Origin: Pseudomonas phage Luminis
Direction: 5' to 3' (one strand)
Sequence record: PQ632788.1
DNA length: 53,253 bases
Position 1 is the first letter of the stretch; the number at the start of each line of letters is the position of its first letter. Shown one piece after another: positions 20,807 through 39,178 of this stretch. The notes under the pieces are model-generated. The model was not told the DNA's origin. It made no database searches and saw only the letters and a list, made by a program, of their open reading frames with translations. Both the position numbers and the translations under genes were made by a program.

Positions 20807-20810
20807 GCCG

Positions 20811-20841
20811 CTTTACTTCTTCGGAACGCCGCACTATACTT
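20811..20841 (+). promoter_or_regulatory. Phage promoter copy 3
   Basis: CCGCTTTACTTCTTCGG with TTTACT at 20812-20817, a 17 nt spacer, then CACTATACTTCTTCAC with TATACT at 20835-20840. Confidence 0.65.
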
Positions 20842-27157: not shown

Positions 27158-27730
27158 ATGAGTGACGACAACACGATGGACAGCGTGATGATTGACCTGG
27201 AGACGATGGCGACCGGCCCCAACGCCGGGGTCATCCAGGTCGGGGCGATCCCGTTCAACAGCCGAACCGGATTGGTGAAGCCGGACCTGTTCGAGGTGGA
27301 CGTGGACCTCCACAGCGCCCTGATGCTGGGCGGCGAGGTCGATGCCTCCACGGTCCAGTTCTGGCGGGACCATGGCGGACTCCAGCCCAAGCGCCCGCCG
27401 AAGGCGATGCGCTCCGCGCTGACCGACCTCGCCCGCTGGTTGGGCAAGTACCCGGACCTGAAGCGGGTCTGGGCCCAGGGGCCGTCCTTTGACGTCGCCA
27501 TTCTTGAGGGTTACTATCGCCGGGCGGGCGTCCCGATTCCCTGGGGATACTCCATGGCCCGGGACACCCGCACCGTGTATGACCTGGCGAAGGAGCGGGG
27601 CTGGTCGAAGCCGGAGGGGACGCAAGCCGTTCACACCAGCCTGGAGGACTGCCGCCGCCAGATCATCTGCCTCATGAGCGCCCTGAACGTCCTCCGGGGC
27701 AACCCTGAAGGAGAACCCAAGATTGGCTGA
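27158..27730 (+). CDS. DEDDh 3'-5' exonuclease (DnaQ/RNase T-like)
   Basis: Exo I MIDLETMATGPNAGVIQVGAI. Exo III-like AVHTSLEDC. Confidence 0.7.
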   Translation: MSDDNTMDSVMIDLETMATGPNAGVIQVGAIPFNSRTGLVKPDLFEVDVDLHSALMLGGEVDASTVQFWRDHGGLQPKRPPKAMRSALTDLARWLGKYPDLKRVWAQGPSFDVAILEGYYRRAGVPIPWGYSMARDTRTVYDLAKERGWSKPEGTQAVHTSLEDCRRQIICLMSALNVLRGNPEGEPKIG

Positions 27731-27914
27731 CGAAATCGACTTGAGCAATGATCGCATCCTCCACGACACGGACCGCGAAGTGGCCCGGATCGCGGAGGCC
27801 GCGGCGAAGATACCGCCCGGGGAGCCGGGCGACTGTGACCTGTGTGGCGAATGGAGTGGGAGGCTGGTGGGAGGAGTCTGTGCGCCCTGTCGGGACCGCC
27901 ACAAGTTGCCGTGA
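27723..27914 (+). CDS. TraR/DksA-family C4 zinc-finger protein
   Basis: CDLCGEWSGRLVGGVCAPC motif. TTG start per ORF track. Confidence 0.6.
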   Translation: MADEIDLSNDRILHDTDREVARIAEAAAKIPPGEPGDCDLCGEWSGRLVGGVCAPCRDRHKLP

Positions 27915-27938
27915 ATCGAAGAAAGTTGTATGAGGGGG

Positions 27939-27969
27939 CTTTACTTCTTCGGGAGCCCCCACTATACTT
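27939..27969 (+). promoter_or_regulatory. Phage promoter copy 4
   Basis: GGGGGCTTTACTTCTTCGGGAGCCCCC with TTTACT at 27940-27945, a 17 nt spacer, then CACTATACTTTCTTCAC with TATACT at 27963-27968. The -35 sits in the loop of a GGGGGCT/AGCCCCC hairpin. Confidence 0.65.
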
Positions 27970-28014
27970 TCTTCACGTTCAACAAGAACGGCAACCGCAG
28001 AAATGGAGAACATC

Positions 28015-28623
28015 ATGACCCGCACCGCCGCCTTCTACACCGACCGCGCCACCGCCCGCTTCGAGGCTGGTTTCACCTCCAAGGCCGCTCAACAAGAAGC
28101 CCTCCGCGACCTCAACAGCGCCTTCGAGCTGCTGAAGCGCGACATCACCGGCCTGGTCCTGGACATCGACCGGGACGCCCGCACCGCGGATCATGATGAC
28201 GTGTACTGGAACCTGGCCGACTACCCCCACAACTGGAAGGCCAAGCACTCCGCCCTCGCCCTCCGCGTGTTCCCGCAGACCGCCGCGACCGTCGCCCAGA
28301 TCGAAGCCCTGGTGGAGTTCCGCGCCGCTGTCAAGGCCGCTCCGGTGGTGAAGATCGAACGCGCCAGCGACAACGCCAAGGTCGAAGCCGTGACCAAGTC
28401 CATCCGCGACCTGATGGAGCTGCGCCAGGAGCAGTACAACAACGCCCTCCGCCTCCACGACATCTTCGGCGGGCTCCCGGTCCACGCCAACGTCCACTAC
28501 GTGACCAACCAGCACGGCACCACCTTCCTCCGGGCCTTCTACTACCTGAACGGCACCCTGACCCCGCTGTCTATCATCATCGCCGCCGCGGAGGCGAAGG
28601 CCCGGGAAGCCGAAGGCAAGTGA
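28015..28623 (+). CDS. Hypothetical protein
   Basis: ATG 28015, 6 nt after the conserved CAGAAATGGAG SD context. In-frame ATG 28003 is the alternative start. Confidence 0.55.
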   Translation: MTRTAAFYTDRATARFEAGFTSKAAQQEALRDLNSAFELLKRDITGLVLDIDRDARTADHDDVYWNLADYPHNWKAKHSALALRVFPQTAATVAQIEALVEFRAAVKAAPVVKIERASDNAKVEAVTKSIRDLMELRQEQYNNALRLHDIFGGLPVHANVHYVTNQHGTTFLRAFYYLNGTLTPLSIIIAAAEAKAREAEGK

Positions 28624-28631
28624 GACGAAGC

Positions 28632-28651
28632 GGGAGGGCTCCGGCCCTCCC
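28632..28651 (+). terminator. GC hairpin GGGAGGGC-TCCG-GCCCTCCC (20-mer that recurs verbatim at 46145)
   Basis: Perfect 8 bp stem with UCCG tetraloop immediately after a stop codon. No U-tract. Confidence 0.4.
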
Positions 28652-28677
28652 CCGAACCCAAGAAAAGGAGCCCGCCG

Positions 28678-29148
28678 ATGCGCCCCAACCTCCTCGAAGC
28701 CCTCCGCGCAATGACGGAGGGCGAGCTGTACGCCGCCCTGTACCAGGACCCCCTCACCGGGGTCCTGAACCGCCGGGCCTTTGCCGGGGCCGTTGAGGAG
28801 GCGCGGGCCGTCGCCCTCGTGGACATGGACTCGCTGAAGTGGATCAACGACAACCTCGGTCACAGGGCCGGTGATCGAGCCCTCCAGGTCCTCGCGGATG
28901 CCCTCGTGCGGTCCTTCGGAGCTGACTGGGTGTTCCGGGTGTCGGGCGATGAGTTCGCCGTCATGGACGGAGACGCTGAACAGCTCACCCAACGGCTCCT
29001 TCTCCTGCGCTGCTCAGTCCCGGGTTTCAGCTTCGGGACCGGATCGGACATGGCGGAGGCGGACCGCGACCTGCGACACGACAAAGCGGAGCGGGAGAAG
29101 TCCGGCCACCGGGCCGCGCGAGGGCTCCGACCGCCGTGGGTGCCTTGA
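28678..29148 (+). CDS. Stand-alone GGDEF-domain protein (diguanylate-cyclase-like; active-site variant SGDEF)
   Basis: DPLTGVLNRRAF, ALVDMDSLKWINDNLGHRAGDRAL, FRVSGDEFAV and SFGTG motifs are collinear with the GGDEF consensus. Only 156 aa, with no sensor domain and no I-site. Confidence 0.7.
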   Translation: MRPNLLEALRAMTEGELYAALYQDPLTGVLNRRAFAGAVEEARAVALVDMDSLKWINDNLGHRAGDRALQVLADALVRSFGADWVFRVSGDEFAVMDGDAEQLTQRLLLLRCSVPGFSFGTGSDMAEADRDLRHDKAEREKSGHRAARGLRPPWVP

Positions 29149-29161
29149 ACACCCGGCGGGG

Positions 29162-29192
29162 CTTTACTTCTTCGGGTCCCGCCACTATACTT
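29162..29192 (+). promoter_or_regulatory. Phage promoter copy 5
   Basis: GGGGCTTTACTTCTTCGGG with TTTACT at 29163-29168, a 17 nt spacer, then CACTATACTTTCTTCAC with TATACT at 29186-29191. Confidence 0.65.
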
Positions 29193-29225: not shown

Positions 29226-29639
29226 ATGAGCAAGATCACCGCAACCCGCATCGACAACGATGACCAGCGGCTCCAGGTCCTCCCGGCCCACTTCGGGGCG
29301 GACTTCCTCCGGGTCGAAATGGCCCTGTATGACCACCTCCAGAAGATGGCCCCGGAGGACTACAACGGCGCGTACTGGTACATGTACAAGCTGTCCAACG
29401 GCGCGATGTACCTGGCCCCGGCGATTGAGAACCGGAAGCTGCGACTGACCGTGGACACCAACGGCTACTCGGGCGAGGTCAGCGGAGACGCCGCGGGCCT
29501 GATCACCTGTCTGTTCGTGTTCAACGCCCTCTGCTGGAAGTACCCGCAGCGCGAGGACTTCGTGGACCTGTTCTACAAGCTGCGTGACTTCGCCTTCGAC
29601 CACCCGGAGGCTGAGGAAATCATCGCCGCCATCGACTGA
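29226..29639 (+). CDS. ArdB/KlcA-like antirestriction protein (family assignment from remembered consensus)
   Basis: QRLQVLPAHFGADFLRVE...YNGAYWYMYKLSNGAMYLAP...DLFYKLRDFAFDHPEAEEIIAAID resembles the ArdB/KlcA (PF03230-type) pattern. About 137 aa. First gene after promoter copy 5. Alternative start 29211. Confidence 0.45.
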   Translation: MSKITATRIDNDDQRLQVLPAHFGADFLRVEMALYDHLQKMAPEDYNGAYWYMYKLSNGAMYLAPAIENRKLRLTVDTNGYSGEVSGDAAGLITCLFVFNALCWKYPQREDFVDLFYKLRDFAFDHPEAEEIIAAID

Positions 29640-36350: not shown

Positions 36351-36937
36351 TGGGGTGCCTGTACCGCGTGTCCTTCCCCAACGGGAAAGCCTACTTGGGC
36401 ATCACGACCCAGACGGCCCAGGCCCGGTTCAAGGACCATTGTTCAGAGGCGGGCCGCTTGAAGCGGGAGAAGTCCCGGGGAGGCTCGCTGCTCCATCACG
36501 CCTTGAACAAGTACCCGGGTCAGGCGCAACTCGAAGTCCTGGTGATTGCGGAGGATTGGGACTACCTTTGCGAGCTGGAGCGAAAGGCCATCCAAGCCTT
36601 CGGGACACGGAAGCCGAACGGCTACAACCTGACCGAAGGGGGCGAAGGCACGCCCGGCTATCGCATGCCGCCGGAGTCCCGGGAGCGTCAACGGCAAGCC
36701 GTTCTGGGATCGAAATGGAAGGAGGACGCCCGGCAACGCTTCTCGGAGCAGTGCCGGGGTCGGATAATCACCCCGGAGACGCGAGCGAAGATGGCGGAAG
36801 CGAAGCGGGGGAACTCCTTGCGGGCTCGCCCGGTCACGTTGGATGGGGTGGCCTATCCCTCAATCAAGATAGCCCAGGAAAAGACCGGCCTGGGTTGGGA
36901 CGCAATCCAGAAGGTACTGAGAAATGGCGACATTTAA
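36350..36937 (+). CDS. GIY-YIG homing endonuclease (second copy)
   Basis: CLYRVSFPNGKAYLGIT core. NUMOD3-like repeats GYRMPPESRERQ and RIITPETRAKMAEAKRG. Inserted between the portal and head-morphogenesis genes. Confidence 0.8.
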   Translation: MGCLYRVSFPNGKAYLGITTQTAQARFKDHCSEAGRLKREKSRGGSLLHHALNKYPGQAQLEVLVIAEDWDYLCELERKAIQAFGTRKPNGYNLTEGGEGTPGYRMPPESRERQRQAVLGSKWKEDARQRFSEQCRGRIITPETRAKMAEAKRGNSLRARPVTLDGVAYPSIKIAQEKTGLGWDAIQKVLRNGDI

Positions 36938-38132
36938 CGAAGAATACAGGGACGCCGCGCTGCGTCACCAAATCGACCTGCGCCGCTACAGCGCGGGCGT
37001 GACCAAGCGGGTCGCCCGTCTCCTGGAGGAGGCGGACCGCGACCTGACCGAACGCCTGCGCACCCGGCTCGCCCGCTTCGAGGGCCGTGACCTGGACTTC
37101 ACCGGCGAACGCTGGAAGGCCCTGCTCACGGACATCCGCGGAGCCCGGGCCGCGGCCCTCGCGGAGTACAAGACCCTGGTGCGGGACGAACTCGGGCAGC
37201 TCGCCGTCCTCGAAGGCCAGGCCGAAATCGACCTGCTGCAGTCCTCCATCACGATTGAGGTGGGCTTCATGGCGGTGAACGCGGACCAGCTCCGGGCCAT
37301 CGCCACCTCCCGCCCGTTCCAGGGCCGGTTCCTCCGGGACTGGTTCAGCACCCTGGAGGCGGTGGACCAGCAGCGACTGACCACGGCCCTTCAGCTCGGG
37401 ATGACGAACGGGGAGCCCATTGACGACATCGTGCGGCGAGTGGTCGGGACGCGCAAGAACGCCTATGCGGACGGCATCTTGTCGATGACCCGGCGGGACG
37501 CCCAGGGGATCGTCCGCACCGCGGTGAACCACGTGTCCAACACCGCGCGGGGCTACGTCTGGGACGCCAACAGCGACATCATCACGGCGAAGGTCTGGGT
37601 GAGCACGCTGGACGGTCGGACCACGGCTGTATGCCGCGCCCGGGACGGCCACGGGAGCCCCGTGGGCGACAATGAGCTGCCCGCGGACATCCCCCTGCTC
37701 CAGCCCAAGGACGCGAAGCCCCCGGCCCACTTCAACTGCCGGTCGGTGATGGTCGCCTACATCGACGGCGTGGGCCTCCTGGGCAATCGCCCGACCGTGA
37801 CGGACACCCGGACCCGCGCCAAGCGTGAAATCGACTTCCGCCGGATGGCGAAGGAGCAGGGCAAGCCGATCCAGGACATCAGGAAGGCTTGGGCCGCGGA
37901 GAACGTGGGCCGGGTTCCGGCGGCGACCACATATCAGGACTTCTTGAAGCGTCAGCCCGCCTCCTTCCAGGATGAGGTCCTGGGCAAGACCAAGGCCAAG
38001 CTGTTCCGGGAGGGCGGGCTGAACGTGGATCAATTTGTGGATCGGGCCGGCAACGAGCTGACCCTGTCTCAACTCGCGGAGCGCAAGCCGGACGCCTTCC
38101 GCAAGGCTGGCCTTGACCCTGAAAAGTTCTGA
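36924..38132 (+). CDS. Head morphogenesis protein (Mu F / SPP1 gp7 family)
   Basis: RTAVNHVSNTARGY and STLDGRTTAVCRARDG motifs typical of the Mu F-like domain. Confidence 0.75.
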   Translation: MATFNEEYRDAALRHQIDLRRYSAGVTKRVARLLEEADRDLTERLRTRLARFEGRDLDFTGERWKALLTDIRGARAAALAEYKTLVRDELGQLAVLEGQAEIDLLQSSITIEVGFMAVNADQLRAIATSRPFQGRFLRDWFSTLEAVDQQRLTTALQLGMTNGEPIDDIVRRVVGTRKNAYADGILSMTRRDAQGIVRTAVNHVSNTARGYVWDANSDIITAKVWVSTLDGRTTAVCRARDGHGSPVGDNELPADIPLLQPKDAKPPAHFNCRSVMVAYIDGVGLLGNRPTVTDTRTRAKREIDFRRMAKEQGKPIQDIRKAWAAENVGRVPAATTYQDFLKRQPASFQDEVLGKTKAKLFREGGLNVDQFVDRAGNELTLSQLAERKPDAFRKAGLDPEKF

Positions 38133-38989: not shown

Positions 38990-39028
38990 GGGGAGGCCCC
39001 CAAGTTTGGCCAGGGGGCTTCCCTTTTT
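38990..39028 (+). terminator. Hairpin followed by a T-run
   Basis: GGGGAGGCCCCC...GGGGGCTTCCC followed by TTTTT. Confidence 0.5.
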
Positions 39029-39178
39029 CGCAACTTGGTACTATACTGACGTCACTTTTGGTTGTATAGCCAGAGGCGAAGGCCCACAGGAGTGATTCCG
39101 CGGGCCGCGACGGAACACCGGGTGATCCGGCACGGCTGAAAACCGCTTGAGTCATCAACTTCTGAAGGAGGGCCAATC

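Follow-up and report, generated by a model that had tools for sequence, protein, structure and literature searches.

How a phage might use a GGDEF domain that stands alone, with no sensor attached, is the question raised by one gene of Pseudomonas phage Luminis (record PQ632788.1), and with it comes the question of whether the encoded protein is an enzyme at all. The window, by which we mean the whole stretch of DNA analyzed (53,253 nucleotides), is that of a Yuavirus, with 96 to 97% identity to PAC7, PAC9, and PaTs-2. The first-pass annotation had described the gene product as a minimal, diguanylate cyclase–like protein and had left its catalytic competence in doubt, as its A-site reads SGDEF instead of GG(D/E)EF.

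The GGDEF gene and its transcription unit

The GGDEF coding sequence lies on the plus strand at 28678..29148, from ATG to TGA with the stop included, and encodes a 156-aa orthologue of YuA gp44 and MP1412 gp43. A Shine-Dalgarno sequence read from the DNA, AAGGAG (28665..28670, plus strand), is found 7 nt 5′ of the ATG, and the GC content at third codon positions (GC3 = 0.83) is that of a coding frame. A minus-strand ORF at 27979..28992 (337 aa; GC1 0.87) was considered and, on the GC content of its codon positions, dismissed as a shadow ORF such as a genome with 65% GC produces. Measured against Yuavirus and Bordetella phage orthologues, the dN/dS of the GGDEF gene is 0.22 to 0.46, which indicates purifying selection.

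Two plus-strand copies of a promoter repeat (TTTACT-17 nt-TATACT; repeat family D2/D3) were located by a promoter scan (2 sites versus 0.1 expected) and by alignment of four copies. The upstream copy (27940..27968) most likely drives both a 206-aa YuA gp42 homologue (28003..28623, plus strand; an ORF syntenic with YuA gp42 and MP1412_42), which is the first gene of the unit, and the GGDEF gene, which follows as the second after a 54-nt spacer. The downstream copy (29163..29191) heads an antirestriction gene at 29226-29639 (PF03230; Antirestrict match E = 1.1e-27). Of the earlier claim that the GGDEF gene sits directly after one promoter copy and before another, the latter half holds, the downstream copy being 15 nt past the stop; the former does not, since the 206-aa gene intervenes. 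The YuA record labels the equivalent repeat a “putative sigma70 promoter” that requires a phage-encoded cofactor. Promoter and terminator scans of the 54-nt spacer gave no match, and an 8-bp GC hairpin at 28632-28651 was rejected as a terminator, being no better than shuffled sequence (z = −0.67) and without a T-run. The gp42-like protein has no match in Pfam or PADLOC, and a search for a conserved partner gene found that the neighbors of distant stand-alone homologues differ.

Domain architecture and fold

A domain search with the 156-aa protein returned a GGDEF domain alone, with no sensor domain. Pfam GGDEF (PF00990) matches with E = 1.9e-15 and 57.4 bits against a cutoff of 23.8, aligned over profile positions 2 to 87 of 161 only, and TIGR00254 scores 57.9 against a cutoff of 37.4; judged by these profile scores, the assignment is far beyond chance. 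The initial description of a stand-alone 156-aa GGDEF ORF with three collinear motifs is borne out on both counts, as both profiles exceed their cutoffs with no second domain and all three motifs are present in order. The DxLTGxxNRR turn that opens GGDEF domains reads D24-PLTGVLNRRAF-35 (28747..28782, plus strand) and aligns to PleD D292-R300, with D24, N31, and R32 invariant in 36 family members. It is followed by D49-MDSLKWINDNLGHRAGD-66 (28822..28875, plus strand), which holds the metal-binding D49, K54, and the guanine readers N57 and D66 (PleD D327, K332, N335, and D344), and then by the A-site hairpin R87-VSGDEF-93 (28936..28956, plus strand), equivalent to PleD R366-YGGEEF-372, in which G368 is replaced by S89.

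An AlphaFold2 model of the 156-aa protein (pLDDT 96.7) adopts the GGDEF palm-like fold, and the top 50 Foldseek matches are all GGDEF enzymes. An mCpol or Cas10 palm cyclase was considered as the closest relative in fold or sequence and rejected, the matches of both kinds being all to ordinary diguanylate cyclases. In the model, residues 3 to 22 (28684..28743, plus strand) form an N-terminal two-helix hairpin (H3-11 and H14-22), and the family profile aligns from position ≈3 to 7, hairpin included, even in the copies found within giant proteins. This hairpin is a candidate stalk or dimerization element, the latter role being a presumed one. That isolated GGDEF domains lacking a dimerizing partner are usually weak enzymes counts against an active cyclase. 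At the other end of the protein, the last part of helix 4 and a family-specific Arg/Pro-rich tail make up K136-AEREKSGHRAARGLRPPW-154 (29083..29139, plus strand), with the consensus DK..RE..G.RA.RG..PP[W/G]; the tail is modeled as an ordered coil (pLDDT ≈92 to 96). In the family alignment, R139, R145, R148, and G149 of this segment are invariant, and K136, G143, A146, and P152 reach 90% conservation or more; the motif is found in polyvalent-protein copies too.

Catalytic, substrate-binding, and inhibitory sites

We mapped the functional residues on PleD, with sequence and numbering verified against PDB 1w25. PleD D327, K332, N335, D344, R366, G369, E370, and E371 correspond to D49, K54, N57, D66, R87, G90, D91, and E92, and these catalytic and guanine-reading residues are invariant in 36 members of 44 to 83% identity except for R87, which is at least 90% conserved; D49, D51, K54, N57, D66, G90, D91, and E92 are kept down to ≈30% identity (copies 30 to 42% identical). 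The first A-site residue is Ser in 57, Ala in 31, and Gly in 21 of 120 homologues, and SGDEF is the commonest A-site form in the family. The natural SGDEF or AGDEF enzymes ECA3270, VCA0965, and MbaA synthesize c-di-GMP (PMC3974145, PMC8079147); VCA0965 with Ser at the first A-site position (A-to-S) is inactive (PMC3974145), and the isolated cytoplasmic domain of MbaA is without cyclase activity in vitro (PMC3974145, PMC8079147). The doubt that SGDEF had cast on competence is largely answered, because Ser is the family norm, the other catalytic residues are conserved, and enzymes with SGDEF or AGDEF can be active; against this stand the dead A-to-S variant of VCA0965 and the inactive isolated domain of MbaA.

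In product-inhibited GGDEF enzymes, the I-site is an RxxD motif placed five residues ahead of the A-site, together with a secondary Arg (PleD R359, D362, and R390). Its absence, claimed at the outset, is confirmed: G81 is found in place of R359 and L109 in place of the secondary-site R390, only D362 is kept, as D83, and the family consensus near the R359 position is Phe. Toward the C terminus, the spacing “AD..L...K” places K136 at PleD K442, and the counterpart of R446 is ambiguous, as alignments disagree; the last helix is one turn longer, and the invariant R139 or R145 could replace R446. The trimmed domain and the ambiguous R446 equivalent count against reading the protein as a cyclase.

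With regard to the product, the first-pass annotation had offered c-di-GMP, another cyclic dinucleotide, or else a nucleotide-binding decoy. Synthesis of c-di-GMP is the best reading. Hypr GGDEFs, the cGAMP makers that Hallberg et al. reportedly described in 2016, are said to have Ser at the PleD D344 position; this signature Ser is not found here, D66 being invariant in the family, and retention of the guanine-reading N335 and D344 as invariant N57 and D66 argues against another cyclic dinucleotide. The decoy is disfavored as well, because there is no I-site for holding c-di-GMP and the catalytic acids are conserved.

A viral module shared with polyvalent proteins

The 156-aa unit is a compact, phage-specific module that is almost entirely viral. 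An exhaustive protein search gave 192 clusters at E ≤ 1e-30. In 185,579 species genomes, only about twenty near-full-length matches were found, mostly on unclassified or gammaproteobacterial MAG contigs, and the other matches are ordinary GGDEF domains that cover residues ≈24 to 102 only; assigning a prophage or host through bacterial genomes was abandoned in view of the number and the mostly MAG origin of the near-full-length matches.

At 55 of 70 viral loci, the module is embedded in polyvalent proteins of 1,000 to over 3,500 aa, where its partners are LPD22, LPD38, ART-PolyVal, RadC-JAB, and inorganic pyrophosphatase (InPase) domains. An InPase domain is present in 16 of these 55 giant proteins and, by our own count, lies within ≈20 to 115 residues of the module, on either side, in 11 of the 16. 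The sequences that flank the module in giant proteins form many small clusters, the InPase group being the largest, and proteins with two modules in tandem exist (P0121-P0123). The Arg of R-x-[SAG]GDEF is His in most polyvalent-protein copies. Polyvalent proteins, which phages and conjugative elements encode and which comprise 2 to 15 domains, are believed to serve in host conflict after packaging and injection, and their GGDEF domains were proposed by Iyer, Burroughs, Anand, de Souza, and Aravind (2017) to interfere with host nucleotide responses (PMC5512222).

Proposed function and alternative explanations

Taken as a whole, the best explanation, toward which we lean with some reserve, is that the Yuavirus gp44-type protein is a self-contained, compact GGDEF diguanylate cyclase. 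It builds on what the analyses establish, namely the domain identity, the fold, an intact set of catalytic residues, and the absence of regulatory sites. Enzymatic activity of the 156-aa protein is probable, judging from its residues, and c-di-GMP is the product we infer. The protein would be made as the downstream product of a two-gene unit under a phage-specific promoter; two copies of it would pair, as all GGDEF enzymes do, and convert 2 GTP to c-di-GMP and 2 PPi; the proximity of InPase domains in giant proteins and the tandem modules fit a PPi-releasing chemistry and pairing. Because there is neither a sensor nor an RxxD product-inhibition site, output would be set only by the amount of protein, and host c-di-GMP would therefore be expected to rise during infection or carriage.

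What the phage would most plausibly gain in Pseudomonas aeruginosa is the loss of its own receptor. Type IV pili are the receptor of MP1412 and YuA (PMC12035536), and c-di-GMP induces the plzR promoter, PlzR in turn blocking pilus assembly and YuA infection (PMC11461919). Pilus loss could proceed by this c-di-GMP–induced PlzR-PilZ-PilB route, together with reduced motility and more matrix, and would exclude superinfecting pilus-dependent phages and keep progeny from adsorbing to infected cells. Such a pilus or superinfection consequence is put forward tentatively, as possible but on balance doubtful. Biofilm-type “host conversion,” as the original annotators proposed, would also follow. An orthologue is carried by the related Bordetella phage LK3, whose lysogens form biofilm in excess; their flagellar motility is up, the opposite of a simple high-c-di-GMP phenotype, and the study tied no phenotype to the gene (PMC8471281). 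Since many phages of unknown host contain the module, as do injected polyvalent proteins, the pilus role, if true, would be only one host-specific use.

The protein could instead be catalytically dead and bind GTP, c-di-GMP, or a host protein (a cyclase, a phosphodiesterase, or a pilus regulator) in the manner of the degenerate GGDEFs of FimX and LapD, and the noncanonical SGDEF A-site, the inactivation of VCA0965 by Ser at this position (PMC3974145), the shortened fold with no obvious dimerization domain, and a conserved Arg-rich tail that could serve as a binding surface all speak for this. Degenerate receptor GGDEFs, however, lose metal and substrate residues, whereas the eight listed above from D49 to E92 are invariant to ≈30% identity; nor is there an RxxD I-site for c-di-GMP, and the pyrophosphatase fusions and tandem modules fit an enzyme only, so that a dead domain seems distinctly unlikely. 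GGDEF enzymes with altered products exist, the Hypr GGDEFs among them, and an active cyclase that makes 3′3′-cGAMP or c-di-AMP as these do, or else linear pppGpG or an oligonucleotide, might be suspected in a divergent subfamily whose C-terminal half falls outside the Pfam alignment, which has a tail motif of its own, and in which most polyvalent copies have His for Arg in R-x-[SAG]GDEF. The invariance of N57 and D66, set against the Ser that Hypr enzymes reportedly have at the D344 position, and the sequence and fold matches, all to ordinary diguanylate cyclases, nevertheless make a different product very improbable.

The distribution of the family bears on another use of the enzyme, as a counter-defense or takeover effector whose nucleotide product, c-di-GMP or a related one, would be deployed very early against host cyclic-nucleotide immune signaling or other defense regulation and not for remodeling of pili or biofilm. 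Such a role would suit a module that is almost entirely viral and that sits, at most of the loci, inside polyvalent proteins with the partners named above, which are thought to be injected and whose GGDEF domains have been proposed to interfere with host nucleotide responses (PMC5512222); in the window, moreover, the antirestriction gene is next to the GGDEF gene. Yet the window protein is separately transcribed, outside any polyvalent protein, and jackhmmer searches with its neighbors in the window and with the gp43-type genes of relatives found nothing among giant phage proteins. The GGDEF protein is unmatched by the PADLOC defense and anti-defense models, and the large native c-di-GMP network of P. 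aeruginosa would be the first target of its product. In hosts with STING-type CBASS, 3′3′-c-di-GMP would trigger defense, and we know of no defense system that it switches off; we consider the effector role unlikely. A more general proposal, which we likewise regard as improbable when taken in full, is that the mini-GGDEF is a distinct, essentially virus-only effector module, made of a helical hairpin, a trimmed core, and the RE..G.RA.RG..PP tail, which phages would move about, now as a free-standing early gene and now as part of an injected polyvalent protein, often pyrophosphatase-paired or in tandem, and which would act as a constitutive cyclase from the very onset of infection, a general takeover or counter-defense weapon that yields an excess of c-di-GMP or else a related product. 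On this view, the Yuavirus gene would be one member, and an accessible one, of a so far unstudied class of phage signaling enzymes.

If the gp44-type protein is an active and unregulated diguanylate cyclase, a lytic or pseudo-temperate phage would plainly be carrying a second-messenger enzyme of its own, with which it could reprogram host surface structures, motility, and biofilm. This is relevant to phage therapy because Yuaviruses and related Bordetella phages are therapeutic candidates, in which a gene that promotes biofilm is unwelcome. To judge from the kinship with polyvalent proteins, making c-di-GMP early in infection may be a tactic of many phages, and the 156-aa protein, which is small, looks soluble, and lends itself to testing, offers a convenient way in.

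Comparison with known systems

The gene and its annotation are already known. The window protein matches MP1412_43 at 100% and YuA gp44 at 96% identity, is of equal length, and shows no difference of substance from them; other Yuavirus and Vojvodinavirus copies share 64 to 95% identity with it. In YuA and MP1412, the gene occupies the same slot between the gp42-like and antirestriction genes, with the same flanking promoter repeats; YuA, PAC9, and AN14 have one or two further genes between gp42 and GGDEF (YuA gp43, or a small hypothetical gene and a ≈290-aa “DNA binding protein”), which the window and MP1412 lack. The MP1412 GenBank record gives “diguanylate-cyclase GGDEF domain” for the identical protein, the YuA gp44 record notes a diguanylate-cyclase domain with a “putative role in host cell conversion,” and a 2025 review table gives “c-di-GMP synthesis” for MP1412. 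Our literature search found annotation-level mentions only (these two records, the Bordetella LK3 paper, and the review table) and no biochemical or in vivo test of a phage GGDEF protein. Added here are the conservation of catalytic residues, SGDEF as the family norm, and a viral module shared with polyvalent proteins.

The window protein has the same catalytic, metal-binding, and guanine-reading residues and signature motifs as PleD, WspR, SadC, GcbC, and XCC4471. It differs from these canonical cyclases in that sensor, receiver, and coiled-coil domains are missing, as are the RxxD motif and the secondary I-site, in that Ser replaces the first Gly of GGDEF, and in being ≈25 to 30 residues shorter. 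Measured on PleD, helix 1 has ≈10 residues fewer and the strand pair before “ISIGVS” is reduced to one short strand; against canonical cyclases in general, one strand precedes the last helix in place of the hairpin, and the tail RE..G.RA.RG..PPW takes the position of the C-terminal “GRNxV” strand. From end to end (≈3 to 153 of 158), the family profile aligns with the polyvalent GGDEF modules, N-terminal helices, [H/R]xSGDEF, and tail motif included, and by this alignment the window protein and the polyvalent modules are one compact subfamily. The window copy, unlike the embedded ones, is a free-standing, single-domain product of 156 aa with its own ribosome-binding site, and it has Arg before SGDEF, where most embedded copies have His, and a PPW rather than a PPG end.

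ECA3270 (SGDEF), MbaA (SGDEF), and VCA0965 (AGDEF) indicate that a cyclase can make c-di-GMP when its first A-site residue is Ser or Ala (PMC3974145, PMC8079147), but these are large, regulated bacterial signaling proteins, some with an I-site, and have no specific kinship to the phage module. The YIP peptides of PB1-like Pseudomonas phages are likewise phage-encoded and raise c-di-GMP in P. aeruginosa; YIP, however, is a small peptide that activates the host cyclase YfiN, whereas the window protein would be the enzyme itself (PMC8085984).

A stand-alone GGDEF gene in a two-gene unit

The 156-residue window protein, encoded at 28678..29148 on the plus strand, is almost certainly a GGDEF protein. 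It matches PF00990 (Pfam GGDEF; E=1.9e-15, 57.4 bits against a cutoff of 23.8) and TIGR00254 (NCBIfam; 57.9 bits against a cutoff of 37.4), and domain searches found no other domain. The ORF runs from an ATG to a TGA codon, is preceded at 7 nt by the ribosome-binding site AAGGAG and has GC1/GC2/GC3 values of 0.76/0.46/0.83, as expected at a genome GC of 65%; it is thus a real gene, as the first-pass annotation had it. A minus-strand ORF (27979..28992) has the mirrored codon-position GC pattern and was rejected as a shadow ORF. At 37024-37046, within a 402-aa gene (36924..38132), the sequence repeats a 23-nt stretch of the GGDEF gene (29051-29073) with a single mismatch; the encoded peptides are EEADRDL and (M)AEADRDL, respectively, and the resemblance is probably chance, reflecting a short peptide and codon usage in common.

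An ≈32-nt phage promoter-like repeat, GCTTTACTTCTTCGG..N..CACTATACTT (TTTACT-17 nt-TATACT), occurs in four copies in the window (20810-20841, 27938-27969, 29161-29192, and 39017-39048), and equivalent repeats in the YuA record are annotated "putative sigma70 promoter requiring phage-encoded cofactor." Similarity between the copies at 27935 and 29158 spans 81 nt, reaching into the 5' leaders. The gene had been placed directly between two copies: the downstream one (TTTACT..TATACT at 29163-29191) does lie 15 nt past the stop codon, in front of an antirestriction gene (PF03230, E=1.1e-27), but the upstream one (27940-27968) precedes the 206-aa gp42-like gene (28003..28623), so that the GGDEF gene is the second of a two-gene unit. 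Promoter and terminator scans gave no match in the 54-nt spacer between these genes, and the hairpin present there is insignificant. Directly 5' of the unit are an Rv2179c-like 3'-5' exoribonuclease (27158-27730; PF16473, E=1.4e-29) and a 63-aa Cys-rich protein (27723-27914) that relatives annotate as TraR/DksA-type; a tie between the exoribonuclease and nucleotide-signal turnover, for example, of pGpG-type substrates, is pure speculation.

Active site and predicted fold

The three GGDEF motifs are present and collinear (D24-PLTGVLNRRAF, D49-MDSLKWINDNLGHRAGD-66, and R87-VSGDEF-93). We aligned the window protein to the GGDEF sequence of PleD, the sequence and numbering of which were verified against PDB 1w25; PleD residues D327, D329, K332, N335, D344, R366, G368, G369, E370, and E371 correspond to D49, D51, K54, N57, D66, R87, S89, G90, D91, and E92, respectively. 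At the level of sequence, the catalytic and guanine-specific residue set is intact and strongly conserved. In the last helix, which exceeds that of PleD by one turn, K136 falls at the position of PleD K442 by "AD..L...K" spacing; alignments disagree on whether R139 or R145 is the counterpart of R446. The lack of a sensor domain and of an I-site, both previously proposed, is borne out: only GGDEF was found, and in the PleD alignment R359 and the secondary-site R390 are replaced by G81 and L109, with only D362 kept (D83).

An AlphaFold2 model built from a 36-sequence family alignment is very confident (mean pLDDT 96.7, pTM 0.89) and has a genuine GGDEF fold. It opens with two short helices at the N terminus (residues 3-11 and 14-22), followed by a helix (32-41), a strand (44-50), two helices (53-60 and 62-80), the A-site hairpin strands (85-89 and 92-97), a helix (100-113), a strand (117-122), a helix (125-142), and an ordered coil tail (143-156). 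Relative to PleD and SadC, the domain is ≈25 to 30 residues shorter: helix 1 is ≈10 residues shorter, the strand pair preceding "ISIGVS" becomes a single strand (GFSFGTG), and a Pro/Arg-rich tail replaces the C-terminal "GRNxV" strand.

Family conservation and occurrence in polyvalent proteins

A word-indexed search returned 248 homologues at E≤1e-5, and almost all of the best 120 of these are 143 to 200 aa long. An alignment of 36 members (44-83% identity) reveals invariant residues D24, N31, R32, A34, D49, D51, S52, L53, K54, N57, D58, G61, H62, G65, D66, G90, D91, E92, G120, A128, D129, R139, R145, R148, and G149, which comprise the catalytic set and a family-specific C-terminal signature, DK..RE..G.RA.RG..PPW. 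The dN/dS ratio is 0.22 to 0.46 among Yuavirus and Bordetella-phage orthologues. The first A-site position varies among 120 homologues (Ser in 57, Ala in 31, Gly in 21, and Thr in 3); with Ser the commonest residue, SGDEF is typical of the family rather than a mark of decay. The earlier doubt over catalytic competence, raised by SGDEF, is eased by this family pattern and by active natural SGDEF/AGDEF cyclases (ECA3270, VCA0965 and, in vivo, MbaA), and it stands insofar as Ser at this position is tolerated in some cyclase backgrounds and not in all (PMC3974145, PMC8079147). The stand-alone family includes members with N-terminal extensions (e.g., locus L016, 5689-6471, and homologous proteins P0069, 264 aa with a Cys-rich N terminus, and P0023, 195 aa), and thus intermediates between stand-alone and multidomain forms exist. 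The phrog_5594 profile has 528 positions, of which 341-525 make up the GGDEF part.

A scan of IMG/VR for the family pattern yielded 70 viral loci. About 15 encode stand-alone proteins of 154 to 260 aa; in the other 55 the ORF that holds the match is 637 to >3,500 aa long and, in nearly every case, >1,000 aa (examples from L019-L077 are L026 3358-11676, L028 118-9861, and L066 1924-12528). Most giant proteins match the family profile end to end (positions ≈3-153 of 158), with alignments covering the N-terminal helices, the [H/R]xSGDEF A-site and the tail motif ending in PPG, and Pfam searches of three of them identified the polyvalent-protein hallmarks LPD22, LPD38, ART-PolyVal, and RadC-JAB. 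Of the 55 giant ORFs, many of them truncated at locus ends, 16 have an inorganic pyrophosphatase domain (InPase, PF18823), which in L026 stops 19 residues ahead of the GGDEF module; by our count it lies ≈20 to 115 residues from the module, on either side, in 11 of these 16. This group is the largest cluster among highly diverse module flanks, and InPase is the commonest immediate neighbor on either side. The relevant sections of Iyer et al. 2017 already note GGDEF and InPase domains in polyvalent proteins and propose interference with host nucleotide signaling and PPi clearance; those sections draw no link to the Yuavirus stand-alone gene (PMC5512222).

Searched exhaustively with an HMM, 1.84 billion representatives yielded 192 clusters at E≤1e-30. 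Besides stand-alone proteins, these contain giants as long as 5,484 aa and proteins in which two complete modules follow each other in tandem (P0121, 487 aa; P0122, 478 aa; P0123, 544 aa). Each tandem module bears the DSLKWVNDN, YHxSGDEF, and RE..G.RA.RG motifs, and the arrangement could represent a built-in cyclase dimer. Near-full-length matches number only ≈20 among 185,579 species (one genome each), mostly on MAG contigs, and so the compact module is essentially viral.

Phage relatives and local gene content

The window region is 95 to 97% identical to Yuavirus (YuA-like P. aeruginosa siphophages), including PaTs-2, PAC7, PAC9, and AN14. The GGDEF gene is already known from public records and reviews: the window protein matches MP1412_43, which bears the annotation "diguanylate-cyclase GGDEF domain," at 100% identity and YuA gp44 (RefSeq note, [quoted passage not shown]) at 96%, the same annotation appears in many further records, and in a 2025 review table MP1412 has "TFP" (type IV pili) as receptor and "c-di-GMP synthesis" as a feature (PMC12035536). 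The first-pass identification was right, the promoter detail excepted. An orthologue in the related Bordetella phages (Vojvodinavirus; 64-70% identity) was singled out, without a genetic link, in the description of hyper-biofilm lysogens, which are also more motile (PMC8471281). We searched the literature for enzymatic or genetic tests of phage GGDEF proteins, this one included, and found none.

Like MP1412, the window lacks genes between the gp42-like and GGDEF genes (28623-28678). Among relatives (comparison loci L001 2624-3952, L002 2624-3960, and L003 2624-3496), PAC9 and AN14 encode an ≈87-aa hypothetical and an ≈294-aa "DNA binding protein" here, and YuA encodes the 250-aa gp43; none of these intervening proteins has a Pfam domain. 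This ≈0.9 to 1.3 kb indel splits megablast matches to relatives in two. The stretch 20000-44000 is mosaic, with a GGDEF protein identical to that of MP1412 and the surrounding 24 kb closest to PAC7, PAC9, and PaTs-2 (96.4-96.8%); the downstream insert of MP1412 differs (394-aa ORF, MP1412_46).

Predicted activity and possible role

A counterdefense or take-over effector, which the polyvalent-protein relatives and the adjoining antirestriction gene would favor, is unlikely: we know of no defense system that is disabled by c-di-GMP, PADLOC gave no match, and the window neighbors have no counterpart in the giant proteins. The Ser in the A-site and the trimmed fold would suit a dead, binding-only domain, the "decoy" entertained previously, yet the invariant catalytic residues, the missing I-site and the pyrophosphatase and tandem contexts make this quite improbable. 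A different product, such as the other cyclic dinucleotide suggested before, is very unlikely, given that the guanine-reading pair is preserved as N57 and D66 and there is no Hypr-type Ser. We favor an active c-di-GMP synthase, which the sequence makes probable; the initial guess of c-di-GMP synthesis is a reasonable prediction.

GGDEF cyclases must pair for catalysis, and the window protein would do likewise; modules in tandem and a conserved hairpin at the N terminus fit this. The predicted reaction would convert 2 GTP to c-di-GMP and 2 PPi, and because such a cyclase releases PPi, the InPase fusions of relatives make sense. As the enzyme would be subject neither to regulatory input nor to product inhibition, its mere expression should increase c-di-GMP in the host. 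Type IV pili are the receptor of MP1412 and YuA (PMC12035536); c-di-GMP induces the plzR promoter, and PlzR, which binds PilZ, stops PilB-dependent assembly of pili and inhibits infection by YuA and other phages that depend on pili (PMC11461919). The most attractive consequence of raised c-di-GMP would be loss of the phage's own receptor, which may lead to superinfection exclusion and spare progeny adsorption to doomed cells; we advance this pilus or superinfection role only tentatively. Biofilm-type "host conversion" in carriage would be a compatible second effect. Tip, Aqs1, and PfsE of other P. aeruginosa phages reach the same outcome by direct pilus inhibition.
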